Source of the DNA: Candidatus Sigynarchaeum calidifontis
GTDB taxonomy: Archaea > Asgardarchaeota > Lokiarchaeia > Sigyniarchaeales > Sigyniarchaeaceae
Assembly (NCBI GenBank): GCA_030587475.2
Contig: JAUQYZ020000231.1
Coordinates: 2,948-66,947 of the forward strand
Length of the DNA stretch: 64,000 nt
Reading direction: 5' to 3'
Part shown: positions 2,459 to 28,469 of the stretch, in pieces
Layout: each line of letters begins with the position of its first letter
Position numbering within the stretch: the first letter of the stretch is position 1
Program-made: the position numbers and the translations under genes
The notes under the pieces: generated by a model
The model's input: only the letters and a program-made list of their open reading frames with translations
What the model was told of the DNA's origin: nothing
Databases searched by the model: none

Positions 2459-3696
2459 CGACCTTGCTCCTCTTTATTCGCAGATCTCATGAAATCGAGC
2501 AAAGCTTGGAGCACGACATCCATGTGCTCGCCGCTGACCCCGCTCATCGTGTCATGGCGCGTGTTCGCAATGGTGCAAGCATGGGAGACCCATATGGACG
2601 GCATGCCGATCGCTGCAAACGGGGCGTGGTCTGATGCGGGATAGGGCATCCACGTGCTGATCCCCTTCTTGGTTCGCTTGACCAGATCGTCTATAAGTAT
2701 TTGCAAGTCAGCATCTTTGGGCGGGCGGGTGATCCTCGGGAACCCGAACGATGCGCTAATAACGAGCGGCCCCGAACCACCCGGCTCGTCAATCGAGACG
2801 AAGCACGCCCGACCATTCCCGTCCCGGCCGAACTTGCGCTCGTGCCTCGCCGCGTGGAAGGCTGACCCCCACAAGCCTTCCTCCTCCGCGTCGAAGAACA
2901 CGAACGTGATCTCGGAGAACCGCGAGCCGGCTCCCAATTTCTTGCACGCGCCCGCCAGCTCGAGCAATACCGCGCAGCCCGTGGCGTTGTCGACCGCTCC
3001 ATCGGATCGGTTCGTTCTCTTGTTGGCGAGCCTTGCCACGAGCGTGCAGCACGAGAGCAAGCACAAGAGGGCGATGGCGAGACGAAACCACGGGCTCGCC
3101 ACGTTGCCGGCCAATGCAATGATACCCTCGATAATGGCAAGCACCCCGACGAACAAGATGCCGACCGTGTTTCCAAGGAAAATGAAGAGATTAAGCCCGG
3201 GTGGAAAAGCCAGTGATATCGAATCATAATGCGCCCCGACGATGAGCCGGGGCCGCTTGCGATCGCCCGCGGCGTGATTATCGAGCTTCGCGACGATGTT
3301 GATGCCCCGCTTGGCGTTGCGCGGCAACTCGCCAGTTCCTTCGAGCGTGGCATTCATCCGCCATTTAAGCGGCATCGAATACTGGAAGAACAGCACGGAA
3401 AGCAACACGGTCGCCAGGAGCGTTGTGAGCCACGCCGTTTCCCCGGGTTGGAACCACAAGATGGCAAAGATGCAATAATCCGTGATGGCCAGGGAAATGA
3501 TAACAAGGGTATTTACCACGTGCAGCCGGCGCGGCTTGTACCAGAAGACCTCTTCGGCAGCATCGTACCCCCGTGCCTTCAAATCCGCGGCGATGATCTC
3601 GCGCGCCCGGTCGTTCCCGCTCGTGCCCGTCCGCCGCGGGAAGGCGAGGCGCCCGGCAAGTGCTATCAATGTCCCGGCTGCATGTTCGCTGCTCAT
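2443..3696 (-). CDS. M28 family zinc aminopeptidase with internal transmembrane segments
   Basis: M28 motifs GAHYDS, DNATGCAVLLELA, FVFFDAEEEGLWGS and SDHAPF are present, with several hydrophobic helices in between. Its ATG overlaps the upstream gene stop (ATGA at 3696-3693). Confidence 0.85.
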   Translation of the reverse strand: MSSEHAAGTLIALAGRLAFPRRTGTSGNDRAREIIAADLKARGYDAAEEVFWYKPRRLHVVNTLVIISLAITDYCIFAILWFQPGETAWLTTLLATVLLSVLFFQYSMPLKWRMNATLEGTGELPRNAKRGINIVAKLDNHAAGDRKRPRLIVGAHYDSISLAFPPGLNLFIFLGNTVGILFVGVLAIIEGIIALAGNVASPWFRLAIALLCLLSCCTLVARLANKRTNRSDGAVDNATGCAVLLELAGACKKLGAGSRFSEITFVFFDAEEEGLWGSAFHAARHERKFGRDGNGRACFVSIDEPGGSGPLVISASFGFPRITRPPKDADLQILIDDLVKRTKKGISTWMPYPASDHAPFAAIGMPSIWVSHACTIANTRHDTMSGVSGEHMDVVLQALLDFMRSANKEEQGRQAGT

Positions 3697-5168
3697 AGAT
3701 TCCGCCCGTGAAGTGAAAAATCCCGTCTTGTTACGAGCTTATAGATACCCTTGAATGCCCTCACGAAAACATCGCGATCGAGCAGGAACAGCATGGCAAA
3801 GATGAAAAGGATCAAGAAGATCTCTGCATAAGGGAACAAGGGAGTAACGAGAATCCAGAAGAAGTACGCGGCGATGCCAGCGATCAACATAACGGAGAAG
3901 GCAACCACGTTAATCCAAAAGAACACGTGGCGGCGACCGAACGGGTTGCGGATCTTGGCGACGAAAAGCCAGAGAAAAGCACGTGCGATGCGCGGCTTGT
4001 TCTTGTACTTGTCCATAACTCGCCGCACGTGCGCCTTTTCAGCCTCGACTTCGTAATCACGGGGATAACCGAAGAGCAAGACAGCGATCATACAGATGAG
4101 CACGGCAGCGATGATGACGATGACCGCGAGCAGCGGGAAATATTCGGCCGGCACTATGCGGAGATATGCAAGAACCTCGTCTCGACCCTCCTCGTCGACG
4201 ATCAGCGCATCTTCCAAGGTCGCGATGATGTTCTGGCCGAGCAAGACCGTGTTATCGTCCATGAAGATGCCATACACGTGAACGGATGCCCAGTGATTGA
4301 GGAACACGTAGGGGGTCGTGTTGTTGATTTTCACGGCCGTGAACCAGTGGCGAGCGCCGCACGCGACGAAAGCCTGGCCCGTGAGGTTTCCCTGATTTAT
4401 CAACCGGCGGATGAAGCTGACCGTGACCACGGCGATGCCGTCACAATCATCCCGCGCTTGAAGATTGGAGTTCGTTGGATTCGCCTTCCAAGCTTCAGTG
4501 AAGCTCCAGCGGGACAAGGCTTCGTCGGGGGTAGGAACGTGATCCGACACGTGCCAGGTCCACGAGTCTTCAGTCCAGCGAATGATCATGTTTTGGATGA
4601 AATAATCGACGATGAGCAGCTTTTGGAATTGAGAATAATAAGAAGGGGACGAGAACGTGGTCAGGCTCAACCCGGATGCGGATATCGTCTTTGAAAAAAC
4701 ATGGTAATAAACGTCCTCCATGGGTTTGCTGGTGTCGGTCAAGTTATCCGCGTAATACGTGAGGCTATTGGAGAAATCCGTACTGCGATTATCCAGCCAC
4801 CACTTGAATGCATTGTCCAATTCCTCCATTTTCGAGCTATCTGTCTGGATCAACGTGCTTTTGAACGCGTGGCGCCATATCTGCGACGGCCAGAGGGAAG
4901 GATTTTCCACGAGAGCGCCGATCGTGAGGAATGTTGCAGCAAAGGCGATGAACGATGCTCGAGTGAATCGGATGCCGAAATTCTTCTTGCGAATGGTCGC
5001 GGCGAATACGACTATCGAAGTGATGGCCATTATCATGCCGTTCGCGACCATGTATCCATTTATAAAGATGATGAGCCCGATGAAGAGTGGCACCCCGATG
5101 ATCAAGAACATCCACGACTGCCGGGATAGCCTTTTCTGCCGGGATGCAGGGAGAGTTTGCTGGGTCAT
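3693..5168 (-). CDS. Multi-pass membrane protein with a transglutaminase-like (BTLCP-like) cysteine protease domain
   Basis: 491 aa with N- and C-terminal TM clusters. The central soluble domain has RDDCDGIAVV ... ARHWFTAV ... VFLNHW, which resembles the Cys-His-Asn/Asp arrangement of transglutaminase-like cysteine proteases. Coding is well supported. The function is inferred. Confidence 0.6.
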   Translation of the reverse strand: MTQQTLPASRQKRLSRQSWMFLIIGVPLFIGLIIFINGYMVANGMIMAITSIVVFAATIRKKNFGIRFTRASFIAFAATFLTIGALVENPSLWPSQIWRHAFKSTLIQTDSSKMEELDNAFKWWLDNRSTDFSNSLTYYADNLTDTSKPMEDVYYHVFSKTISASGLSLTTFSSPSYYSQFQKLLIVDYFIQNMIIRWTEDSWTWHVSDHVPTPDEALSRWSFTEAWKANPTNSNLQARDDCDGIAVVTVSFIRRLINQGNLTGQAFVACGARHWFTAVKINNTTPYVFLNHWASVHVYGIFMDDNTVLLGQNIIATLEDALIVDEEGRDEVLAYLRIVPAEYFPLLAVIVIIAAVLICMIAVLLFGYPRDYEVEAEKAHVRRVMDKYKNKPRIARAFLWLFVAKIRNPFGRRHVFFWINVVAFSVMLIAGIAAYFFWILVTPLFPYAEIFLILFIFAMLFLLDRDVFVRAFKGIYKLVTRRDFSLHGRNL

Positions 5169-17215: not shown

Positions 17216-17839
17216 GTGGATTTTAACATCGTTTTCAAGGACATATGTGAAGATCTAGACGCTTTCGACGAGGTCCGGGAGGAAATCATGGTGCTTGGCC
17301 GCAAGGGTATCAGGTTATGTTCTGAGGCGATAAAGAAACTGCACCGGCACGAAAACGGCGTGGACCAGCTTATCGATGAAGCACGTGGAGTGTTGAAAGG
17401 AATGCTGGATGTCGCTTCCAGGCATCCGAAACTCCAGTTCGGCTCCTATTTTGATGGCATATACCAAGAATTCACGGAGGCTTGCTTGCTCAAGAGTATT
17501 TTCACTGGGGGGAAGTTCCCGAGACCCGCCGAGCTAGATCCGTCCGTCCCCGCGGTCCAATACCTTACAGGCTTATGCGACGTGATCGGGGAACTTCGAC
17601 GTGCCGTTCTCGATTGCATCAGGGAAGAGCATTTCGAAGAGGCACTCAAATATTTCGATATAATGGAAAAATTACACGACCACGTGAATGCGCTCGATTA
17701 TCCGAATGCCGTGATCCCCGACGTGCGTCATAAAGCAGATGGTAATCGAAAAATCATCAATGCAACGCGCAGCGAGCTCACCATGGCAATGCATATACAT
17801 AAACTCAACGATAATCTCTCGAAAACAACCAAGGATTAG
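17216..17839 (+). CDS. Translin family protein
   Basis: All-helical 207 aa with the translin signature region YLTGLCDVIGELRRAVLD. GTG start. The stop lies 4 nt before the sepS ATG. Confidence 0.7.
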   Translation: MDFNIVFKDICEDLDAFDEVREEIMVLGRKGIRLCSEAIKKLHRHENGVDQLIDEARGVLKGMLDVASRHPKLQFGSYFDGIYQEFTEACLLKSIFTGGKFPRPAELDPSVPAVQYLTGLCDVIGELRRAVLDCIREEHFEEALKYFDIMEKLHDHVNALDYPNAVIPDVRHKADGNRKIINATRSELTMAMHIHKLNDNLSKTTKD

Positions 17840-17843
17840 GATC

Positions 17844-19412
17844 ATGGTCAAATTCGACATTAATTCGCTGCTGGAAGCCGCCAAGCGAAATTACGAGCGG
17901 GCATGGAACGAGTCGGCCAAGCTGCTCGAGAAAGAGGGAACCAAGTTCAAGCTCGACCCGGCAAGAGGTTCCCCGCACCCGATTTATTCATTTATCCAAG
18001 AGGCGCGGCAAGCACTCATATCGCTTGGATTCGAGGAGGTCGTTTTGCCCATATTCGTCGACGAGGAAGAAATATACAAGGAATATGGACCCGAGGCGGC
18101 CCTCATTACAGATCGCATTTTCTACACGGCTGAATTACCACGCCCCGACATCGGCATCTCGACAAAAAAAATGGATCATATCAAGATGCTGGTTCCAAAA
18201 TTTGATAAATTCGATGATCTCCAGAAGCTCTTCAAAGCTTACAAGAAAAACGAGATCGAGGCAGATGACTTTCTTGATGAAATGGTGAAACAACTTGGTG
18301 TTTCCCCGTCGGAAGCCGCGGATATCATTGACAAGGTGTTTCCCGAATTCAAGAACATCCAGCCCGTTCCGTCTAAGCGGACGCTCCGCTCACACACGAC
18401 CGCGTTGTGGTTCCCCGTGCTCGGCGCGCTCCAAGGCAAAAAGCCACTCCCTATCCAGCTGTTCCACGTCGGGCTCAAATTCCGCAGGGAGCAAAAGCTC
18501 GATGCACGCCACCTCTACGAATCACACACCATGTCGCTCGTGATTTGCCACGAGCACATCACGCTGCAAGATTGCATGGATATATCGAGACTGATTTGCA
18601 AGAAAATCGGGTTCCAGGACGCGAAATTCGAGATCAAGAAAACAACAGGGAAGTACTATGCACCCGGCACGGAGTTCGAGATCTTCGTCAAGCACGAGAA
18701 CTATGGCGATTGGCTGGAGATCGGCGACGGCGGGTTCTACAGCCCGATCAGCTGCGCCAAGTACGGGATCCTGTATCCCACGTTCAACATCGGCTTCGGC
18801 GTCGAGCGAATCACGATGATCAAGACAGGCTGCGCTGACATTCGCCAACTCGCCTATCCATATTTTTATGCCCCATCGTCGTTTTCCGACAAGGAAATGG
18901 TCCCGCTCATCCGCATCTGCAACGTGCCGTCGACCGACGTCGGGAAATCGGTCACCAAGGCAGTAATTAAAGCGATCAAGGAGCACGGGCATGACCCGTC
19001 GCCGTGTACCGTGGTGGCCGGCAAATTCACGATCGACAACAAGCAAGTACAAGTGGTATTGTGGCAGAAGGAGACAAACGTGAAGCTCGTTGGCAAGGCG
19101 CTCTACAACGAGATCTATGTCAAGAACGGCGAGATCAATTGTTTCGAGAGTAGCACGGGCTCGCTTCCAGATGGTGCTACCAGCACGGGCATCAAGTTCA
19201 TAGACGGGATCGCCAACGAGATAGCTTTCCAGGCGGAACAGCTCGCCAAGTCAAGCGGAAAGGAGGTCACCATCCAATACAAGATGGTCAAGAAAGCGGC
19301 AGACGTGAACGTTGCCATCGATCCCGCGGTCGTGCGGTTTATCACGGACAACCAGCGAAAAATCAAGATCAACGGGCCCGTGTTCGTCAACGCCACGATC
19401 ACGAGGGATTAA
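17844..19412 (+). CDS. sepS: O-phosphoseryl-tRNA(Cys) synthetase (SepRS)
   Basis: Starts MVKFDINSLLEAAKRNYERAW. Collinear with methanogen and Archaeoglobus SepRS (TLRSHTTALWFPVLGAL, PLPIQLFHVGLKFRREQ, NIGFGVERITMIK, PSPCTVVAG). The ORF 17739 extension was rejected. Confidence 0.85.
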   Translation: MVKFDINSLLEAAKRNYERAWNESAKLLEKEGTKFKLDPARGSPHPIYSFIQEARQALISLGFEEVVLPIFVDEEEIYKEYGPEAALITDRIFYTAELPRPDIGISTKKMDHIKMLVPKFDKFDDLQKLFKAYKKNEIEADDFLDEMVKQLGVSPSEAADIIDKVFPEFKNIQPVPSKRTLRSHTTALWFPVLGALQGKKPLPIQLFHVGLKFRREQKLDARHLYESHTMSLVICHEHITLQDCMDISRLICKKIGFQDAKFEIKKTTGKYYAPGTEFEIFVKHENYGDWLEIGDGGFYSPISCAKYGILYPTFNIGFGVERITMIKTGCADIRQLAYPYFYAPSSFSDKEMVPLIRICNVPSTDVGKSVTKAVIKAIKEHGHDPSPCTVVAGKFTIDNKQVQVVLWQKETNVKLVGKALYNEIYVKNGEINCFESSTGSLPDGATSTGIKFIDGIANEIAFQAEQLAKSSGKEVTIQYKMVKKAADVNVAIDPAVVRFITDNQRKIKINGPVFVNATITRD

Positions 19413-19892: not shown

Positions 19893-19912
19893 AAAAAATC
19901 TCTTTTATTTTT
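19893..19912. terminator. Bidirectional T-tract region between convergent ribL and ribK
   Basis: Plus strand has TTTTATTTTT at 19903-19912 after the ribL stop. Minus strand has T6 at 19898-19893, 7 nt after the ribK stop. Confidence 0.4.
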
Positions 19913-20609
19913 GATTGCCAGGCAAGTAAGTAATCCGTACGATATCATCATCCACGAGATTCAAGTCTTTTCGCAACTCGAATGGCGAGATGAGCTCGAT
20001 CACGCTCTTGTCATAATGTGTTCTTTCGATCTTGAGAAAATATGCAGGTAGTGTTCGACCGGTCTCATCGTCATCGCGAGAAATCGTGACGCGAAAAGCA
20101 AACACGTCGCCGAACGACCGCTCTTGCTCCGTGAACCCTCGCATAAGGATGCCCCCCTTTACCTCGACCTGACTCCGGAACAACACGTCGCGCTCGTCGA
20201 GGAGCTTGACGTTCAGAGTACCCGGAAACGGGGTCATGCCAAGATTGTTTCGGAAGAAATCGGAATATTTACTAACGTAATACCGGCCCTCCTTGATGCC
20301 GCTCGTCACTTTCCCCCGTATGATGATTTCCCCGGGTTTTGAAAAGAGGCGTTCGAGTTCTCCGTGCAGCTCCTTGAGCTCGACGATTGCTTTTTCCGTG
20401 AGGGCAATTTCTTGCACCTTGTTCCCGTTAACCTCGATGCGCTTGATGTACCCAAGTTCCTCGAGATGGGCTAGACGCCGGGAGGCGGTCTGCTGGCTGG
20501 CCCCGACAAGCTCGCCGACGCGCGTCGTGCTGATCGGGATCCTGCCAGCTAGTGCCCCAGCCTTTGCTAACTCCAAGAGATATTTCCAATAGGGTGATTT
20601 TAGCTGCAT
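19905..20609 (-). CDS. ribK: Winged-HTH fused to CTP-dependent riboflavin kinase (RbkR/RibK type)
   Basis: N-terminal HTH (ISTTRVGELVGASQQTASRRLAHLEELGYI) and a C-terminal archaeal riboflavin kinase domain (GKVTSGIKEGRYYVS, TPFPGTLNVKL). Confidence 0.8.
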   Translation of the reverse strand: MQLKSPYWKYLLELAKAGALAGRIPISTTRVGELVGASQQTASRRLAHLEELGYIKRIEVNGNKVQEIALTEKAIVELKELHGELERLFSKPGEIIIRGKVTSGIKEGRYYVSKYSDFFRNNLGMTPFPGTLNVKLLDERDVLFRSQVEVKGGILMRGFTEQERSFGDVFAFRVTISRDDDETGRTLPAYFLKIERTHYDKSVIELISPFELRKDLNLVDDDIVRITYLPGNQK

Positions 20610-20637: not shown

Positions 20638-21162
20638 TCAACTACAAGAAAGTTCCAGGCAGGCCCGAGCTATGCGCACGAAGATCGCCTCGACTTGCTC
20701 GCCAGTTTTCGCAGATGCCTCGTCATAAAGGCAAGTAAAGCGGTTCGCCAAGGCTTCCGCATCCATCCGGGAAACGGCGCGATGGTCGGCGAGGTCGGTC
20801 TTGTTGCCGACGACAATGATGGGGATGTTGCCACACACGTCCCGCAGCGACATGATCCATTCGGGAAGCGCGCGGAGCGAGTCCAGGGAAGTGACGTCGT
20901 AAACGGCGATGGACCCGTTCGAGCCTTGAAAATACTTGGCCCGCATGGACACGAACTGGTCTTGGGCCCCGATGTCAAAGATCAAGAGCTGTATCTTGAC
21001 ATCATCAATCGTGACCGGCTTTATCATGAAGTTCGTGCCGATCGTGCTCTTGAGATCGCTTTTAAACGTGTTCTTGACGTAACGAAGGATGAGGGACGTC
21101 TTCCCGACGCTTGCAGCCCCGATCAGGCTGATCTTGAACTTGTAATCAAATTTTTCTTCCAC
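20638..21162 (-). CDS. Ras-superfamily small GTPase, Rab-like
   Basis: G1 GAASVGKTS, switch I TIGTNF, G3 FDIGAQD, G4 GNKTDL, G5 SAK. Collinear with Rab1-like proteins. GTG start with GAGG 8 nt upstream. Confidence 0.85.
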   Translation of the reverse strand: MEEKFDYKFKISLIGAASVGKTSLILRYVKNTFKSDLKSTIGTNFMIKPVTIDDVKIQLLIFDIGAQDQFVSMRAKYFQGSNGSIAVYDVTSLDSLRALPEWIMSLRDVCGNIPIIVVGNKTDLADHRAVSRMDAEALANRFTCLYDEASAKTGEQVEAIFVRIARACLELSCS

Positions 21163-21206
21163 GAGCGCTGCCTCGGTTTACGTCCAAATACAACATTATC
21201 CCGTGT

Positions 21207-21220
21207 TTTATATAAAATTT
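21207..21220 (-). promoter_or_regulatory. TATA-box-like element for the small GTPase gene
   Basis: The minus strand reads AAATTTTATATAAAA, 45-58 nt upstream of GTG 21162. GAGG lies at 21174-21171. Confidence 0.45.
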
Positions 21221-21282
21221 GAAGCCGTTGTCTTGCTTCAAATGCGGGGAAGCGAAGGTAAAAGGAGGGTTGAAAAAAATGT

Positions 21283-22446
21283 TTAGATCTCCTCGTCGTC
21301 GTCGAGACCCTTGATGGGCGCGGGTGGACCACCGCCCGGCGCGGGTTCGCCACCGCCGAACTTGCCAAGGAGATCGTCGATCAATTTTTCGGTCTTGCGC
21401 TTCACGTTGCCATAGAAACAATACTCGCAGCGGAACTTTTCGCCCTCCTTGTCCTTGCTAGACTTGAGGAACTCGGCACCGCAATCTGGACACTTGTAGA
21501 GCTCGCCCGCGATTGGCTTGTTCTGCTTGAGATCGCGAACGAGGCGCTTCCCCCAGACGGTCTGAACGATCTTGTCCAGGACTTGCACGAAGATCTGGTT
21601 GACCGTCCACTTCTCGGCTGCCTCTTCTAGGATCTGGTTGATCTTGGATTGCTTCGCCGGATTGTCTGGCTTGATATTCAAGATGGCACGGGGCATCACG
21701 TCAGGGTACCCGTTCATGTAATCCAAGTCTAGCTCGATCCGCTCGTTCCCATTCTCCAGATCACCCGAAATGTATCCCGTAGCAGGGTTGAAAGAAAAAG
21801 ATTCCTTGTTGACGAACTCGGAAAACTTTTGAATAACGTTCGACTCGAAGTTGATACGCTCATACAATTCCAGCCGATACTCCAATTCCGCGACGAGCTC
21901 GAACAAGTGACCAGCCCACTTCTCGACGAACCGGAGATCTTCGGGCTCACCAATTTTCTCGGAAAGTTTCTCGGGGAATGTAACTTTCAGCTTCGGGTAC
22001 TCGTTACAATCGATCGTGATGAGATATTCGTTCTTGCGGAGGTCGACAATCTTTACCTTGGCTACTTTTCCCTCGAACGTCGCGCGAGGGCCATAATTGC
22101 CGACTAGCACATAGATCTCGTCCATTACCGTGAATTTTGCCGTCGAAGCAGACATCAACTGGTCCTCGAGCTCGTACAAGACATTCACGAGCTCGCTTTC
22201 CTCATTCCAGTTGGCCATCGTTTGGAGCGTGTTGTTGATGTTTCCGAGGATGTCCTTGATCTGTTTCTCGAAGCCGATCTTCGGTTTCTTGCCTTGAGCT
22301 ACCGGGGCCATATCGATATCGAGCTCAAAATTCAGCTCATTAGAGGCAAACATATATACCTTAATCCGCGTGTCCGAAACCTTCTCCACTTGAAAGGAAT
22401 TCTCGACTTCTTCAATTTGCTCAGCGATTGACTTCATTTCGCTCAC
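21283..22446 (-). CDS. Uncharacterised protein: three RWD/UBC-like repeats, a C4 zinc ribbon and an acidic C-terminal tail
   Basis: Three units of about 100 aa, each a beta-meander followed by helices, with YPxxxP-like elements (NEYPKLKVTFP, NGYPDVMPRAILNI). No HPN-Cys catalytic motif. C319PDC-x17-C340EYC, a Gly/Pro linker, and a terminal GLDDDEEI. Start is GTG 22446 or ATG 22437. Confidence 0.7.
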   Translation of the reverse strand: MSEMKSIAEQIEEVENSFQVEKVSDTRIKVYMFASNELNFELDIDMAPVAQGKKPKIGFEKQIKDILGNINNTLQTMANWNEESELVNVLYELEDQLMSASTAKFTVMDEIYVLVGNYGPRATFEGKVAKVKIVDLRKNEYLITIDCNEYPKLKVTFPEKLSEKIGEPEDLRFVEKWAGHLFELVAELEYRLELYERINFESNVIQKFSEFVNKESFSFNPATGYISGDLENGNERIELDLDYMNGYPDVMPRAILNIKPDNPAKQSKINQILEEAAEKWTVNQIFVQVLDKIVQTVWGKRLVRDLKQNKPIAGELYKCPDCGAEFLKSSKDKEGEKFRCEYCFYGNVKRKTEKLIDDLLGKFGGGEPAPGGGPPAPIKGLDDDEEI

Positions 22447-22470
22447 TTCTCGCTTGAAACGTGTGGTTGG

Positions 22471-22481
22471 TATTTAATAAA
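22471..22481 (-). promoter_or_regulatory. TATA-box-like element for the RWD-like gene (short or no leader)
   Basis: The minus strand reads TTTATTAAATA, 25-35 nt upstream of GTG 22446. Confidence 0.4.
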
Positions 22482-22634
22482 CGATGTTGATCGATTTGTC
22501 CACTACTTTTATATACTTTCTCATGAGCGCGGCGGCGGCTAGCCGGTGCAATATACCATTAACATAATACCCGTCCAATTCTGCGTATAATTGATACGCC
22601 TATTGCTCTACCTCGTTTGTTTTCGAACGAGTAA

Positions 22635-22686
22635 CCTATATACTGCGTTTTTTCCACGGTCAAAGCGAAAAAGAATGACGAGGTGA
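22635..22686 (+). promoter_or_regulatory. TATA-like box and Shine-Dalgarno for the 22693 gene
   Basis: CCTATATAC at 22635-22643 and GAGGTGA at 22680-22686, 6 nt before the ATG. Confidence 0.45.
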
Positions 22687-22692
22687 AATTGC

Positions 22693-23433
22693 ATGCATAC
22701 AAGGACAGATAAGAATGCATCGAATGTCCTCGTAAAAACGAGGATAGGGCACGAAAGCTGCACCACGTTCCCGGTCCAGGATTCCCGGGCGGATGATTGG
22801 ATTGGCAAGCTCTTCAAAAAGCCGGCGCCTCAAGCTGATATCATGCTCCCGCTGCGCTTATTCAGGGATTTTCATGTGATCAGTGCGGGTCACGAGATCA
22901 CGGAAGGGCGCACCAAGGCGGCCATTTTCCACTTCAAGCTTGCTGCACAAGCTTGCTTCGATCTCGGCGAGAATGCAATGTGCAACAACCTGCTGGATCG
23001 CGCCGACGCGGCCCAGATGGATCTCGCGAACGGTCTCCGCAAGGATTCCGCGACCAAGCTTGGAAAGAAGGCTTCTTTAAGCAGATATATCGATTTATTG
23101 AGAAACGAGGCTAGCGATGCCATCAAGAAAGGCGACTTGAGCCACGCGCGCGATGTCTTGAGGCAGATCGTCGTGCTCGGCAAGGATATAGGAGATAAGC
23201 GAATGGTCAAGGATTATAGGAGCCAGCTTCGCTCCATCGAGATGATCTATTCCGTGAAGGGGCGCCACAGCGTGACCATCCAGAAAGTGTTCGCATCACG
23301 TCTCGTGCACACATTGAAGGAGGCCACTCTGCGCCGCGAATTGGCATTCCGGATGTCTTTTGCACAGCAGATAAACGTGCTCCAGCCGATCCTGGCATTG
23401 CCTCTATTGCTGCCACTTTCCAACAAATCATGA
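22693..23433 (+). CDS. Hypothetical helical-repeat (TPR/MIT-like) protein
   Basis: The ATG is preceded by GAGGTGA (22680-22686, 6-nt spacer) and a TATA-like CCTATATAC at 22635-22643. The sequence is helical with Ala-rich repeats (AAIFHFKLAAQACFDLGENAM, GDLSHARDVLRQIVVLGKDIGD). Confidence 0.6.
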   Translation: MHTRTDKNASNVLVKTRIGHESCTTFPVQDSRADDWIGKLFKKPAPQADIMLPLRLFRDFHVISAGHEITEGRTKAAIFHFKLAAQACFDLGENAMCNNLLDRADAAQMDLANGLRKDSATKLGKKASLSRYIDLLRNEASDAIKKGDLSHARDVLRQIVVLGKDIGDKRMVKDYRSQLRSIEMIYSVKGRHSVTIQKVFASRLVHTLKEATLRRELAFRMSFAQQINVLQPILALPLLLPLSNKS

Positions 23434-23512
23434 ATCTATTTAAACGCGATCAAGTTGCTAAAAAACGCGAAAGAGAATTACGCAAATTGAGAAATACATT
23501 CGATTTTACAGT

Positions 23513-23953
23513 TCAAAACTTGCACGAGTTCAAGAAGTTCTCCATCATGCCCTTTAGCTTCTCGTCGCGCATAAGCTTTCGTTGGTATTCGGCTTGTTCC
23601 CGGTACCGCGTCTCGATGAGCACCGCCCGGTCAACGAGCATCTTCTCCATATCAGCGACGATCTGGTTGTGCCTCGTGAGGTCTTTTTCCTCGAACCGTG
23701 CTAGCCGGGCCAGCATGGCAAGCAATGCTTGCGCGTAACATAAAGTCGGGCTCATAATTTCTTGTTCTTGCTCCGTGCTCCCTTCGTGGTAAAATGCCAA
23801 CGCCTTGTTCACCTGCTTGGTCAGCACGTCGACATTGGCCACGAGTAACGACCACGACATGGTCTTGAATGGCTCGGGGAACAGCTCGCCGTGTAGCCCA
23901 GCGAGGTAGTCTTGCAACACCTCGTACTCGTTCGTACCGTTCATCACGATCAT
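23513..23953 (-). CDS. Hypothetical helical protein
   Basis: 146-aa ORF with protein-like composition and no recognisable motif. Convergent with 22693-23433. Confidence 0.5.
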   Translation of the reverse strand: MIVMNGTNEYEVLQDYLAGLHGELFPEPFKTMSWSLLVANVDVLTKQVNKALAFYHEGSTEQEQEIMSPTLCYAQALLAMLARLARFEEKDLTRHNQIVADMEKMLVDRAVLIETRYREQAEYQRKLMRDEKLKGMMENFLNSCKF

Positions 23954-24010
23954 AATGACGACAGCAAGTTATTACCTTGATTCGATAGAAAAATCAGCAT
24001 CAAACTTCAA

Positions 24011-24940
24011 ATGAATGCGGGAGCAAGAGGATCTTCATTAAATCGTAGCGTCGGTATGAGAATGACTGGCACGACCTGGACATTGGATGGAAAGATTTGC
24101 TTGATAACGGGGGCGACATCCGGCATCGGCAAAGCGACTGCTTTCGGACTTGCGAAGGCGGGCGGTACCGTAGTGATAGTGGCCCGAAATAGAGAAAAGG
24201 GGACTTCCGTGGTTCAATCTATAAAGGAAAAAACCGGCAACACGAAAATCGACTTGTTAATCGCGGACCTGTCCCGGCAAGCGGATATACGCAATCTTGC
24301 AAGCACGTTCAAGCAAAATTATGATAGATTGCATGTTCTCATCAACAACGCGGGGATCATCTTGTTTCAACGGGTCGAAACGGTCGACGGTCTTGAAATG
24401 ATTTTCGCGGTGAATTACTTGAGCCAGTTCTTGCTTACCAATCTCCTTCTAGATGTAATCAAGCGCAGCGCGCCCGCGCGCATCATCAACATGTCCTCGA
24501 ACGCGCAAGGATGGTGGGGGACGAGGTTGGACCTGAATGATTTGCAAGGGAAGAAACATTTTTCGGGATTCCTTGCCTATGCCGGTTCCAAGCTCGCTAT
24601 CATATGCTTCACGTACGAGCTGGCTCGCCGATTGGAAGGAACGGGGGTCACGGTCAACGCGCTTCACCCCGGTCTCGTGAAAACGAACTTCGGTCGCAGC
24701 GATCAAGGTAAAGGCCCGGGTTTCCTCGGGTTTATCTCTACCTTGTTCGGCACATCGCCCGAAAAAGGCGCTCGAACGAGCTTATACCTCGCGATGTCGC
24801 CAGACATCGAGGGTGTGACTGGAAAGTATTGGAAAAACTGCAAGCAAATTCGTTCTGCCCCCATCTCGCATGACACGGGAATTGCAAGAAGATTATGGGA
24901 TATCAGCGAGCAATTAACGGGTTTAAAGTTTTCCCAATAA
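24011..24940 (+). CDS. Short-chain dehydrogenase/reductase (SDR), retinol-dehydrogenase-like
   Basis: ITGATSGIGKATA, NNAGI, YAGSKLA. The true start may be Met 16 or 18 (24056 or 24062). Confidence 0.85.
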   Translation: MNAGARGSSLNRSVGMRMTGTTWTLDGKICLITGATSGIGKATAFGLAKAGGTVVIVARNREKGTSVVQSIKEKTGNTKIDLLIADLSRQADIRNLASTFKQNYDRLHVLINNAGIILFQRVETVDGLEMIFAVNYLSQFLLTNLLLDVIKRSAPARIINMSSNAQGWWGTRLDLNDLQGKKHFSGFLAYAGSKLAIICFTYELARRLEGTGVTVNALHPGLVKTNFGRSDQGKGPGFLGFISTLFGTSPEKGARTSLYLAMSPDIEGVTGKYWKNCKQIRSAPISHDTGIARRLWDISEQLTGLKFSQ

Positions 24941-25747
24941 AAATTGGAAGAATTGCTTCACGCGCTTGGGAGAACAAACAAACGCAGGGACGCTTTTCTG
25001 ATATCGGCGGTAAGACTCTCCGAACCGCTCGATCAGCTCTTTTTCTTCAACGAAATGAATATGGTATTCCCAGCGAATCACGATGATCAAAAAGAAGGTG
25101 AAGGAATATGCCGAAAACCACCACAATGCACCACCGAAATTCATTAAAATGAAGCTCAAGTACGTGGGATGCCGCACGATGGAATATATCGCGTTTCGCT
25201 GGATCTCGGATCCCTCTGGAAAATACAAATACATGTATAGCAAGTAATCCAGCCCAAAAGTCATTGTTGATCGATACAGCAGCGTAAGTCCGATGGCCAA
25301 GAAGCTGATGCCGGCGACAATGCGAATGATTGATGTATAGGGAATCCATACTGAAACGAAGGACAGAAGAGGAGTGGCGAATATTTTCCCGATTTCCTCA
25401 ACCCATGGGGTGGGGAGGAACATTCGGGTGATCACGACATATTCGAGGTTCATGCCGAAGCATATGTAAAAGAAGCTGTGCTGGTAGGCCTTGTCCTTCA
25501 ACGTGGCAAGGAGCCCCTGCCTTTTCGTCCACATCCGATGCACCATTGCAAATTCCAGGAATTCAATGATGCCGATGCCGATGATGGGCGTCAATGGGGC
25601 GATTTTCTGGAGAAAAGGGATGCTCATGAATACGCGCGGAAGGTTGTCAAAAAAAAACATCACCGTGAAACCGACAAGAACAGATGCCGCCGTTAACATG
25701 ATGTAATACTTGAGCATGCGAGGGAAGTCGGGCAAGTGAGCCCGCAA
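24923..25747 (-). CDS. Isoprenylcysteine carboxyl methyltransferase (ICMT)/phospholipid methyltransferase family membrane protein
   Basis: Multi-TM protein with VRHPTYLSFILMNFGGALWW and EEKELIERFGESYRRYQKSVPAF. Confidence 0.7.
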   Translation of the reverse strand: MRAHLPDFPRMLKYYIMLTAASVLVGFTVMFFFDNLPRVFMSIPFLQKIAPLTPIIGIGIIEFLEFAMVHRMWTKRQGLLATLKDKAYQHSFFYICFGMNLEYVVITRMFLPTPWVEEIGKIFATPLLSFVSVWIPYTSIIRIVAGISFLAIGLTLLYRSTMTFGLDYLLYMYLYFPEGSEIQRNAIYSIVRHPTYLSFILMNFGGALWWFSAYSFTFFLIIVIRWEYHIHFVEEKELIERFGESYRRYQKSVPAFVCSPKRVKQFFQFLLGKL

Positions 25748-25786
25748 TTTTTCCGCGCCCTTGATTGTCGGGATACATATCGCCTT

Positions 25787-27049
25787 CTAAACTAGTGCTG
25801 ATGTTAGCAGTTCTATGGCATCGTTCAAAATCTTTTCCATCTTTGGAACCGGAGTAGTGATCTCGTTGTAGATAGGTTGGAAGTGGAGTATGCCGTTAAG
25901 CGTATGGATGAAAATGACGATGGAATTGACCTTGGCCGATACGCCTCCGAAGAAAGTTTCGACGCGAAAGTTTCCCATGGCGGAATACATGCCTACTTTT
26001 TCGAGAACCCCCCAATTCGTGATGGCAAGCCTCTTGGTCTCCTCGAAGTCGGAAAACATCGCCCAAAATTGACGAATCAACGGCAAGGGCACGGCACGAT
26101 GTAACAAGGTATATATGAAAAATAGGGAGTTGTCCCGCAATGATTTAGTCAATTTTTCTTGGTACTTCCTTGCGTTTTCCCAGAAAGTCTGTTTGGGATT
26201 ATATCTCATCCGGATGTTCATTCCGGTCGCGAATAACCCAATGGCTTCTCCGATGGGCATTTTCAAGCGATCGCGTAGGTTTACAGGCGTGTAGATGGTG
26301 GTGAAGATTGACGAGAAGGCAGTGCATAGCGCCGCTTGGACGGTAACATGCTCTTGCTTGCATCGCGAAACAAGGGCGCTGGTCAATTTCTCGGACAATT
26401 GCGTCGAAGAAGTCTTGAATGAAAAGCCCGTGACCATTTTTTTTTTCGTGGGGCGGATGGAGAGCAATAAATGAAAAAATCTCAGGAAATATAGCCACCA
26501 CTTAAATCTCGTCGCGGTTTTAGGTATCTTCTCCCGGATCGTGGCGGGTAAAATGGTGTCTTGCATCACGGCATCGGCGAGCGGCGTCACTTCCTGACCG
26601 GGATTATCCAGGAGTTGAAAAAAATCCCGAAAAAAGAAGATGTGAGAAAGGGCATCTCCGAGAAAATGGGGCCCACAGATGATGATCTCGGAAGGCTCGA
26701 GAATCATGTCCTTGGGACGCAACCATATTACTCGCATCAAGGGGAGAGGGGGTTCTTGGAAGGGTTTTGCCATCTCTTGTTCCATAACACGTAGAACATG
26801 CTCGTTCCCTTTCCGTTCAATGACCTCCGGCTGGATCGGAGTCACTCCCTCCGAAGTTAGCCACGGCATACCCGTTTCATCTAAAAAGACCGTTGTCCTT
26901 AATAAAGGGTGGCGTATCTGGATTTTCACAAGTGCATCTTGCACGCGCTCGGGCGATAAATCGCCATAAAAACGACAAGCCAACGCAGCATTCGCGGGTT
27001 GACCCATTGTCCACGTGAGAAATTCCAATTCATTTAGTTCTCGTTTCAT
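25787..27049 (-). CDS. Condensation-domain / PapA5-like acyltransferase superfamily protein
   Basis: From MKRELNELEF: LSPERVQDALVKIQIRHPLLRT, then an HHxxxDG-like GPHFLGDALS about 130 aa in. The first His is replaced by Pro. The ORF extends to 27118, but that N-terminus looks non-homologous. Confidence 0.5.
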   Translation of the reverse strand: MKRELNELEFLTWTMGQPANAALACRFYGDLSPERVQDALVKIQIRHPLLRTTVFLDETGMPWLTSEGVTPIQPEVIERKGNEHVLRVMEQEMAKPFQEPPLPLMRVIWLRPKDMILEPSEIIICGPHFLGDALSHIFFFRDFFQLLDNPGQEVTPLADAVMQDTILPATIREKIPKTATRFKWWLYFLRFFHLLLSIRPTKKKMVTGFSFKTSSTQLSEKLTSALVSRCKQEHVTVQAALCTAFSSIFTTIYTPVNLRDRLKMPIGEAIGLFATGMNIRMRYNPKQTFWENARKYQEKLTKSLRDNSLFFIYTLLHRAVPLPLIRQFWAMFSDFEETKRLAITNWGVLEKVGMYSAMGNFRVETFFGGVSAKVNSIVIFIHTLNGILHFQPIYNEITTPVPKMEKILNDAIELLTSALV

Positions 27050-27257
27050 TGATATCTCCGGAAGAGACAAATTATTGATGCGCCGTTCGTGCCTATTTAC
27101 TATCGTGGTTCTTTGCATTTCTATTTACTGACCTCGGACGTGCCTACAAGGTGCGTTGGGGGTTGTTAATAGCTCGCGATAATTAGAATTACCGTGCCCG
27201 TTCGTTTACCTGGCATGCCTATACTCGCGCAAGCGACGAAAAAGAAAGTGATCTAAC

Positions 27258-28469
27258 GTGGTTCTCGCGGATTTCACACCTTCGTTCCGTAAGTTCGATT
27301 TCGTGACCGACGCGAGCGGCTATATCTCGATGCTGATCTACAACTCGCACCCGCCAGGAAGTCTTTTCATCGCGCCGAAGTACTATCCCGACCCGAACGG
27401 GACGTGGTCATCCCATGAGACGCAGCAGAAATATAGCCGGTTCGAGTACTATTGGAACCTTAACTTGAAACAACAATCCAGGGGTAAAGCCGGGCGCGTT
27501 TACGAGGTCGACAAGAACCCGCTCCACGATTACGCAACCGACGTGGTCAGCAAGTTCAACCAGCATCTCGTGGATGACCCGTGCCATGGCGTGCCCATGT
27601 ACCGGCTTCCCCGCGACGCTGTCGTGCGTTATTGGGATGCGAGGATGAAATATCAGTCGGTGGTGGAGCGCAGGCCTGCAAACCTCGATAAATTCGCCTC
27701 GTTACTCAAGAAAATGGGCGATGCATTCGAACCTAGCCAGGTCGGCATCACCGGCTCGTATCTCTATGAGATTTACCAGGATTTTTCCGACATCAACTTC
27801 GTGGTTTATGACGAGGCCGCGAGCATCCTCCACGACATGTTAATGGCGGAGAGCGGTTTGTTGAAGCGCCAGGACATCGAAATAACGATGCCCAGCACCA
27901 CCTGGCCCGGCTGGCTGGGGGACAAAGTCGACGTGCTCGAGTTGCTCCCCGCAAAAACGAGACGGAAGGGCGACAAGGCCGTCGTCCCGGTCAAGAACCG
28001 GTTCATCGGGTCCATTCACGACCCGTTTGACAAGCGCATTCGGGCAGGCTTCTGGCTTGGCAACACGACCGACCCGCACCCTCATGGCACGTTCAAGAAA
28101 ACCAAGCTCGGTATCGCGGTCATCACTGCACGGCTCTCGAACGGGGAAGATGATCTCCCGTCGGGCCACTTTCACGTGGATGATGTCGACCTTCTCGGTT
28201 TCCATCCGACACTCGATATCACGTCAAAAGAATTGGCTAGCATCACGGATGCAAATAGAAACACAAATTTAACGGAAAAAATGCATATCTCGGCCGTTCA
28301 AGTCATCGGCGAATTCAATCGCATGTTTCTTTCCAATGAAAGCATTATTGCATTCGGCCTGGTCGAGGAAATAACGCTTGCTGGCCAAGAAAAGCCCGTT
28401 CACGAGTTGCTCGTCGGCGGCCGCGAGGTGGGGGGATGGATTTTTCCCCGGGACGATATCATCGCTTGA
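27258..28469 (+). CDS. Hypothetical protein with a Pol-beta-type nucleotidyltransferase-like motif
   Basis: GTG start preceded by GTGATC. VGITGSYLYEIYQDFSDINFVVYD resembles hG[GS]-x9-13-DhD, but the second acidic position is Asn. The C-terminal part is beta-rich. Confidence 0.5.
   Translation: MVLADFTPSFRKFDFVTDASGYISMLIYNSHPPGSLFIAPKYYPDPNGTWSSHETQQKYSRFEYYWNLNLKQQSRGKAGRVYEVDKNPLHDYATDVVSKFNQHLVDDPCHGVPMYRLPRDAVVRYWDARMKYQSVVERRPANLDKFASLLKKMGDAFEPSQVGITGSYLYEIYQDFSDINFVVYDEAASILHDMLMAESGLLKRQDIEITMPSTTWPGWLGDKVDVLELLPAKTRRKGDKAVVPVKNRFIGSIHDPFDKRIRAGFWLGNTTDPHPHGTFKKTKLGIAVITARLSNGEDDLPSGHFHVDDVDLLGFHPTLDITSKELASITDANRNTNLTEKMHISAVQVIGEFNRMFLSNESIIAFGLVEEITLAGQEKPVHELLVGGREVGGWIFPRDDIIA

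Follow-up and report, generated by a model that had tools for sequence, protein, structure and literature searches.

A putative Sigynarchaeota protein with three UBC/RWD-like units and a decayed finger, and the Asgard-wide RING-bearing family to which it points

FANCL is the E3 ligase of the multi-subunit Fanconi anaemia (FA) core complex, where it works with the dedicated E2 UBE2T, and its zinc finger is of the C4HC3 type. BRE (BABAM2, BRCC45) serves the BRCA1-A and BRISC deubiquitinase complexes as a multi-UEV scaffold, and both UEV domains and the ELF domain of FANCL bind ubiquitin. Eukaryotic RWD scaffolds, i.e. those of the kinetochore, FANCL, Mediator and GCN2, have been proposed to radiate from an archaeal non-catalytic E2, and a single Asgard RWD-like sequence was mentioned in that context (Tromer et al. 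2019, PMC6601020). Here, we describe a 387 amino acid (aa) protein encoded in a 64 kb stretch of DNA from Candidatus Sigynarchaeum calidifontis (assembly GCA_030587475.2, contig JAUQYZ020000231.1). This whole stretch is referred to as the window, and all coordinates are given in window numbering (Table 1). The protein is assigned with high confidence to the UBC/RWD fold and family. Comparison with its relatives points to a lineage-specific paralogue of an Asgard-wide family, in which a RING-type finger has decayed.

The composition of the window (GC content ca. 52%) is unbroken across the locus. An alternative ATG at position 22437, giving 384 aa, coincides with the starts of the orthologues. 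A word-indexed search retrieved 15 close homologues at 57–89% identity from metagenome-assembled genomes (MAGs) of Sigynarchaeota and Promethearchaeota, denoted Sigyn-type in the following, and their alignment contains 82 invariant columns; a repeat of the search with wide alignment added at least four further proteins. By all appearances of the sequence, the open reading frame (ORF) is a real gene. At one locus (L094) the Sigyn-type orthologue is divided over two overlapping ORFs (3220–3399 and 3383–4321), a frameshift or assembly error that accounts for the 270-aa protein P0015.

A preliminary description of the locus, made from the sequence alone, had split the protein by eye into three units of about 100 aa, each a beta-meander followed by helices. 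The same division emerges from an AlphaFold2 (AF2) model built on 16 orthologues (predicted local distance difference test, pLDDT, 81.7; predicted template modelling score, pTM, 0.64). Here, the units occupy aa 7–102, 107–208 and 218–298, and each consists of a helix, a meander of three to four strands and then helices. For unit 1 the model gives a helix at aa 7–17, strands at aa 19–22, 27–33, 39–45 and 56–58, and helices up to aa 102. Alignment of the units with hhalign revealed their mutual homology, most clearly between units 1 and 2 (99.2% probability, E = 1.8e-19); the pairings of unit 3 with unit 1 (77%) and unit 2 (51%) are weaker. The YPxxxP-like turns that had been read in units 2 and 3 are both present, NEYPKLKVTFP at aa 148–158 and NGYPDVMPRAILNI at aa 245–258. 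In unit 2, Y150 and P151 are invariant in the orthologues and P151 is invariant throughout the family; in unit 3, P248, P252 and W280 are invariant family-wide, with Y247 conserved in at least 90%. Unlike the window protein, the relatives retain (N/D)YPxxP in unit 1 as well, so that YP...P turns occur in all of their units. A helix, a four-strand beta-meander and trailing helices with a YPxxxP-type turn are the features by which UBC, RWD and UEV folds are recognized, and the model together with the YP...P turns of units 2 and 3 conforms to them.

At the level of sequence profiles, unit 3 matches Pfam RWD (PF05773) with E = 0.01 and 16.4 bits, under the gathering threshold of 22.8 bits, and it is alignable to Ubc13 with the HPN-Cys segment substituted. 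Direct Pfam and PDB sequence searches with the window protein provided sub-threshold RWD and zinc-ribbon matches only. The counterpart of unit 3 in the relatives passes the RWD threshold (up to 41.5 bits in P0023; 36.7 bits in P0020) and adds to the UQ_con matches (up to 46.2 bits) in proteins above that cut-off. When the PDB is searched with a family profile, Ubc13 and UbcH7 are matched at about 1e-4, again with the HPN-Cys segment substituted. Homology of the window protein to RWD proteins is supported by transitivity via these relatives rather than directly.

A comparison of the AF2 model with the PDB by Foldseek, the check proposed in the preliminary description, returned FANCL, BRE and RWD proteins as the top matches. 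FANCL ranks first by far (9a0j_L, E = 9.4e-10, 387 columns), as the earlier comparison with FANCL had anticipated, and is followed by 7kzp_L and 7kzp_M. Further matches are BRE/BABAM2 (6gvw_C, 5e-6) and the crystal structure of the double-RWD part of FANCL (3zqs, 6.6e-5), with Mediator subunits, CENP-O/P, Knl1 and the RWD domain of GCN2 at lower rank.

The cysteines of the protein are C147, C319, C322, C340 and C343, with no others, and C147 is variable among the orthologues. Because only this non-conserved residue and the four ligands of the zinc site are available, the HPN-Cys site is absent; neither sequence nor alignments contain a conserved Cys outside the zinc site. The repeats are thus non-catalytic, as previously proposed, and a catalytic E2, defined by an HPN motif with an active-site Cys about 8 residues further on, was rejected for lack of that Cys: as read from its sequence, the protein cannot be an E2.

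Downstream of the three units, a C4 zinc ribbon (CPDC-x17-CEYC) and a flexible acidic tail had been reported. The motif was read correctly, and AF2 places a small zinc-knuckle region at aa 316–346 with disorder from aa 352. The term ribbon is less apt in light of the relatives, whose C-terminal finger has the invariant pattern C-x2-C-H-x3-C-P-x-C…C-P-x-C-x4-H-x2-C-W…C-x2-C. In its core, the ligands are spaced as in a C4HC3 RING/PHD-type cross-brace, the type also present in FANCL. The four Cys of the window protein align with the two CPxC pairs of this finger, i.e. ligand pairs 1–2 and 3–4, whereas the leading CxxCH, the HxxC pair (5–6) and the last CxxC (7–8) are missing, leaving two of the five Cys/His pairs. 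In the orthologues P0011–P0013 all four Cys are lost while the rest of the protein is retained. A RING binds two zinc ions through eight Cys/His ligands; the window protein offers four and these three orthologues none. The knuckle is attributed, on the basis of the alignments, to the remnant of a larger C4HC3 RING/PHD-type finger, and an active RING E3 is judged very unlikely given this degeneration. Matches of the relatives' fingers to the Rubicon homology domain, a domain that binds Rab7, reached 13–17 bits against a cut-off of 28.1; they are typical of Cys-rich sequences and were not relied on.

The segment following the knuckle is well conserved, with R350, K351, E353, I356, D358, L359 and L360 invariant. 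EKLIDDLLGKF aligns with the helix EKVISSIGKC in the finger of the relatives, both at +10 from the second CxxC, and AF2 predicts a helix at aa 355–363, albeit with low pLDDT. The Gly/Pro-rich linker and acidic end beyond it are restricted to the five closest sequences. The tail is indeed flexible and acidic (pLDDT <50 at aa 352–387, terminal DDDEEI).

An exhaustive profile search, which covered 1.84e9 representative sequences, yielded 27 matches, including proteins of 350–670 aa from Lokiarchaeia and Promethearchaeota that cover all three units. These relatives combine three to four UBC-like domains with the C4HC3 RING/PHD-type finger; in many of them the fourth UBC-like domain is located at the N-terminus and is followed by a low-complexity linker. 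In some long-form members (P0023, L078), extra CxxC…CxxC zinc-ribbon-like inserts are found in this linker, which connects the N-terminal domain to the triple module. The relatives also give sub-threshold Pfam matches to FANCL_d1, BRE, UEV and Prok-RING_1. A search for loci, seeded with the RING-bearing subgroup, located the family in at least 96 GTDB species representatives (96 confirmed loci), 80 of which were kept and used for neighbourhood counts. All of these 80 RING-bearing loci are labelled Asgard or “uncultured archaeon”, bar one labelled “Bathyarchaeota”, and that MAG also holds a Sigyn-type orthologue. The preliminary description had named no described prokaryotic equivalent; prokaryotic relatives do exist in the form of this Asgard-wide family, whose members automated annotation already labels as RWD/UQ_con (Pfam) or “ubiquitin-protein ligase”. 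Beyond the single sequence mentioned by Tromer et al. (2019), no prior description of an Asgard multi-RWD plus RING family was found in the openly accessible literature, a search that did not extend to the asCOG tables. The window itself contains a single family member. One MAG (WJJB01 contigs) has a gene of each kind, Sigyn-type (L004) and RING-bearing (L076); the window protein therefore appears to be a paralogue with a decayed finger, specific to Sigynarchaeota, of the Asgard-wide RING-bearing family.

Family genes adjoin ubiquitin-system genes in three lineages. P0034, a protein of 351 aa with three units and a finger, is encoded by the first gene of a complete operon that continues with ubiquitin, E1 (ThiF), E2, JAB deubiquitinase and RING genes, and two Helarchaeota members (L088, L090) are located directly upstream of E1, at one locus (L088) with E2, JAB and RING-like genes downstream as well. 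The AF2 model of P0034 (pLDDT 91, pTM 0.83) again has FANCL as its first Foldseek match (E = 1.4e-8, 400 columns), followed by Listerin (matches 4–6), the SEA complex, BRE and dozens of E2s. The remaining RING-bearing members are found amid housekeeping genes. Clustering of the neighbours at the 80 RING-bearing loci recovered mostly class I aminoacyl-tRNA synthetases (aaRS) and sugar-epimerase/glycosyltransferase genes, which is read as housekeeping collinearity without a functional clue.

The gene 120 nucleotides (nt) downstream of the window gene, on the same strand and with its own TATA-like box, is a Rab-like GTPase gene, as the preliminary description had it. The best solved relatives of its product are Rab30, Rab6, Rab5, Rab43 and a Thorarchaeota Rab (7ezb), and nearly all of the top matches listed are Rab or Ypt, so that the GTPase, a clear member of the Ras superfamily, is placed with the Rab family by its closest relatives. 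Its G3/switch-II motif is DIGAQ (aa 63–67, 20962–20976, minus strand) instead of DxxGQ, with Ala at the DxxG glycine, the position of Gly60 in Ras. DIGAQ is invariant in the 8 orthologues of at least 60% identity that were read, whereas WDIGGQ, the canonical form, is found in the next-closest group (50–55% identity); the change from DIGGQ to DIGAQ is confined to the clade with the RWD neighbour and may alter the GTPase cycle. A conserved C-terminal CC/CXC prenylation motif was not found among the GTPase orthologues. A run of seven T (21273–21279) immediately follows the stop codon of the RWD gene, and the TATA-like TTTTATATAAAA (21206–21217) lies ca. 45–55 nt upstream of the GTPase GTG. These elements suggest that transcription of one gene can be independent of the other.

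Among the distinct Sigyn-type loci (the window, L001/2, L003, L004, L092/93, L094 and L095), a Ras-family gene is found directly downstream of the RWD gene on the same strand in 8 of 8. The gap between RWD and GTPase genes is 72–288 nt, that between GTPase and RibK genes 19–93 nt, and the common downstream order is RibK, FAD synthase, class II aaRS, translin and ThrRS. In the window, a CTP-dependent riboflavin kinase fused to a helix-turn-helix domain (19905–20609, minus strand) follows 28 nt past the GTPase gene. Further along, a translin-family ORF (17216–17839, plus strand) runs into the beginning of a class II PheRS-alpha-like/SepRS-like synthetase ORF of 557 aa (17739–19412, plus strand); as relatives of the synthetase have 521–524 aa, its actual start probably lies further downstream.

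On the other side of the RWD gene, the window differs from L001, L004 and L092 by a 4.8 kb insertion (22447–27257), which separates the gene from its usual divergent neighbour. The latter encodes a conserved protein of 369–407 aa and could be a functional neighbour; wherever the flank of a relative is long enough, it is transcribed divergently from the RWD gene. The GTPase ORF of L055, one of the RING-bearing loci listed in Table 1, is shortened to 66 aa.

Table 1 Coordinates of the features described for the window and for related loci (L numbers)
Feature	Position	Strand	Basis or remark
Triple UBC/RWD-like protein gene with putative degenerate RING remnant	21283..22446	-	ORF, 387 aa, GTG start
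Unit 1 (aa 5–103), UBC/RWD-like, YPxxP motif lost	22138..22434	-	AF2, hhalign, alignment
Unit 2 (aa 104–209), UBC/RWD-like, NEYPKLKVTFP turn	21820..22137	-	AF2, hhalign, alignments
Unit 3 (aa 210–300), closest of the units to RWD/E2, NGYPDVMPRAI	21547..21819	-	Pfam RWD, alignments
C4 zinc knuckle (aa 315–346; C319, C322, C340, C343)	21409..21504	-	Alignment; weak Zn-ribbon Pfam matches
Invariant RKxEKLIDDLLGKF (aa 349–363), short helix, low-confidence region	21358..21402	-	Alignments, AF2
Gly/Pro-rich linker and acidic C-terminus (…GLDDDEEI)	21286..21357	-	Alignment, AF2
TATA-like box TATATAAAA, ca. 60–70 nt upstream of the RWD gene start	22507..22515	-	Read from sequence
Intergenic spacer, 120 nt	21163..21282	-	Read from sequence
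Rab-like small GTPase, 174 aa, GTG start	20638..21162	-	Pfam Ras 2.4e-45, Rab relatives, orthologue alignments
Insertion ORF, no Pfam match at family cut-offs	22693-23433	+	
Insertion ORF, no Pfam match at family cut-offs	23513-23953	-	
Insertion gene, short-chain dehydrogenase	24011-24940	+	
Insertion gene, PEMT/ICMT-family membrane methyltransferase	24923-25747	-	
Insertion gene, condensation-domain protein	25787-27118	-	
Conserved 369–407-aa protein, no Pfam match	window 27258-28469; L001 4680-5804; L092 2393-3616	+ (window)	
Ubiquitin operon headed by P0034, Asgard-type	L008 3923-9083; L009 1525-6685		
Helarchaeota family members directly upstream of E1	L088 5926-12935; L090 5815-8380		
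Rab-like GTPase gene directly before a long-form RING-bearing member	L059 1412-1942; L055 5220-5420		

The combined data are, on balance, best described by a triple non-catalytic UBC/RWD protein with a decayed RING, acting as a pseudo-E3 scaffold, and we favour this reading as a whole, with some reservation. The protein would most likely serve as a non-catalytic scaffold or adaptor, with its RWD lobes and conserved C-terminal helix holding protein partners. These would probably belong to the archaeal ubiquitin system, as components or substrates; a RING-bearing paralogue from the same genomes, regulated by the window protein, is a possible partner. The downstream Rab-like GTPase gene would have its own promoter and belong to a conserved block of housekeeping genes. 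Several observations weigh against this assignment. The TM-scores of the window model against full-length FANCL are low (0.24–0.28) because the domain arrangement differs, so that the match concerns the fold and order of the domains and not their rigid-body placement. The RING/PHD call for the relatives combines ligand spacing, sub-threshold Pfam matches and whole-chain Foldseek matches, with no domain-level structural match. Ubiquitin-system genes are present neither in the 64 kb window nor adjoining any Sigyn-type orthologue, and the link to ubiquitin is therefore inherited from distant paralogues of ca. 20% identity; a ubiquitin-system role of the window protein itself is placed slightly on the doubtful side. 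Finally, adjacency to the GTPase is perfectly conserved in the orthologues and the Gly-to-Ala exchange in switch II arose in the same clade.

The last point is central to a different explanation, put forward in the preliminary description, in which the triple-RWD protein works together with the adjacent GTPase as its adaptor, effector or regulator. The gene pair is intact at all distinct orthologue loci, where rearrangements are found upstream of the RWD gene (the insertion in the window, two genes in L003) and never between the two genes, and a linkage of UBC-fold and Rab-like genes has a precedent in Hodarchaeia, involving UEV-Vps23, ubiquitin, Yip1 and a Rab-like GTPase (bioRxiv 10.1101/2023.07.25.550441). 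However, the entire block is collinear within a narrow clade and adjacency is therefore hardly informative. Between the two genes lie a terminator-like T run and a TATA-like box, and the GTPase gene is closer to RibK than to the RWD gene. Moreover, the translin/aaRS/FAD-synthase/RibK block also houses the GTPase orthologues of sister lineages (50–53% identity, WDIGGQ), and there no family member lies within 5 kb of them. In the adjacency check that had been suggested, the pairing holds for the Sigyn-type loci, whereas a small GTPase gene adjoins the family gene at only 2 of 80 RING-bearing loci (L055 and L059, both of one Lokiarchaeial lineage). Small GTPases are assumed to make up a few per cent of genes, and at that frequency 2 of 80 is about chance. 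Gene order inherited within a narrow clade best explains the adjacency, and the proposed working partnership is unlikely. The eukaryotic pairs cited in its favour, Gir2–Rbg2 and RWDD1–DRG2, involve Obg-type DRG GTPases that are bound via a DFRP domain, not via RWD. This analogy was rejected, as the window protein has no DFRP match at E ≤1 and its neighbour is a Ras/Rab GTPase, not DRG/Obg. A more specific variant, in which Sigynarchaeota repurposed a FANCL-like pseudo-E3 that had shed its RING as the dedicated effector, scaffold or regulator of this GTPase, is less likely still; if true, the pairing would constitute a prokaryotic link between an RWD/UBC scaffold and Rab signalling without described equivalent.

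Two further explanations retain a direct part in ubiquitin handling, and both are considered quite improbable. A still-active E3, i.e. a minimal FANCL with E2 recruitment via the zinc knuckle and the conserved helix, would be in line with the FANCL-like architecture, with the invariance of the counterpart of the RING central helix and with the ubiquitin operons of relatives. It is at odds with the loss of ligand pairs 5–6 and 7–8 and the extra N-terminal CxxCH, with the three orthologues that have kept everything but the Cys ligands, and with Ub, E1 and E2 genes not being found nearby. Alternatively, the protein could act as a UEV-type ubiquitin receptor for ESCRT-like or other sorting: ubiquitin binding is common among non-catalytic UBC-fold domains, Asgard UEV-Vps23 binds Ub (bioRxiv 10.1101/2023.07.25.550441), and the relative P0019 shows a weak Pfam UEV match. 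However, there is no steadiness box (Pfam), coiled-coil stalk (AF2) or Vps28-like domain, which also led to rejection of an ESCRT-I Vps23 identity; ESCRT genes were not found nearby, and FANCL, BRE and RWD proteins outrank the UEVs of Tsg101/Vps23 in Foldseek. The pseudo-E3 scaffold remains the preferred assignment.

It is the family brought to light by the locus, rather than a partnership with the GTPase, that gives the locus its value; coupling to a GTPase would be more striking, but gene order is its only support. From the window, the trail leads to a family of at least 96 Asgard genomes that already possesses tandem RWD lobes and a RING/PHD-type finger. It is conceivable, albeit doubtful, that this family represents the archaeal stock of the eukaryotic tandem-RWD scaffolds (FANCL, Listerin-type, kinetochore, Mediator), a proposal more probable than the GTPase repurposing in Sigynarchaeota. 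If phylogeny bears it out, the “RWD(s) + RING” design of FANCL and Listerin would be older than eukaryotes and could be tested in vitro with archaeal E1, E2 and Ub. The window protein would also exemplify how a RING ligase decays to a pseudo-E3 scaffold within archaea.

Compared to described systems, the Asgard UEV-Vps23 and the archaeal Ub–E1–E2–srRING operons (Caldiarchaeum, Asgard type) likewise tie non-catalytic E2-derived domains to the ubiquitin cascade, and P0034 sits within such an operon. UEV-Vps23 has a single UEV with stalk and steadiness box in place of three or four UBC-like domains and a finger, and the window gene is located outside any ubiquitin operon. The double-RWD kinetochore proteins Knl1 and CENP-O/P and the GCN2/RWDD1-type RWD domains share the RWD fold, employed in tandem as a pure protein–protein scaffold (Foldseek probability 0.9–1.0, TMt ca. 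0.5), and unit 3 is RWD-like at Pfam level; still, FANCL and BRE have the better E-values, and a kinetochore context is absent. In Listerin/LTN1 and RNF25 an RWD immediately precedes a C-terminal RING, as in the relatives, but these are much larger, very different proteins with one RWD, and the window protein has no complete RING.

BRE/BABAM2 is a wholly non-catalytic tandem UBC-fold scaffold without ligase activity, and in addition to the Foldseek match of the window protein a sub-threshold Pfam BRE match covers unit 1 of relatives. It differs in having neither zinc finger nor conserved C-terminal helix, and in partnering an MPN+/JAB deubiquitinase, no JAB gene being present near the window gene. 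FANCL differs in domain arrangement, in its FA-complex partners, which have no counterpart here, and in lineage, the window protein being archaeal and devoid of half of the finger, hence of a complete C4HC3 RING. The Pfam FANCL families (FANCL_d1, FANCL_d2/3, FANCL_C) give no match in the window protein and sub-threshold matches only in relatives (FANCL_d1, 21.7 against 23.8 bits; FANCL_C, 14.8 against 27.3 bits). By none of the sequence tests run is the window protein a FANCL orthologue. Yet both proteins have three successive non-catalytic UBC-fold lobes, ELF and double-RWD in FANCL with ELF as the positional counterpart of unit 1, and then a zinc finger, which in the relatives has C4HC3 spacing; FANCL is also the top Foldseek match of the window protein and P0034 alike. 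The closest known architecture is that of FANCL, and the best functional analogue for the RING-less form would be BRE/BABAM2.

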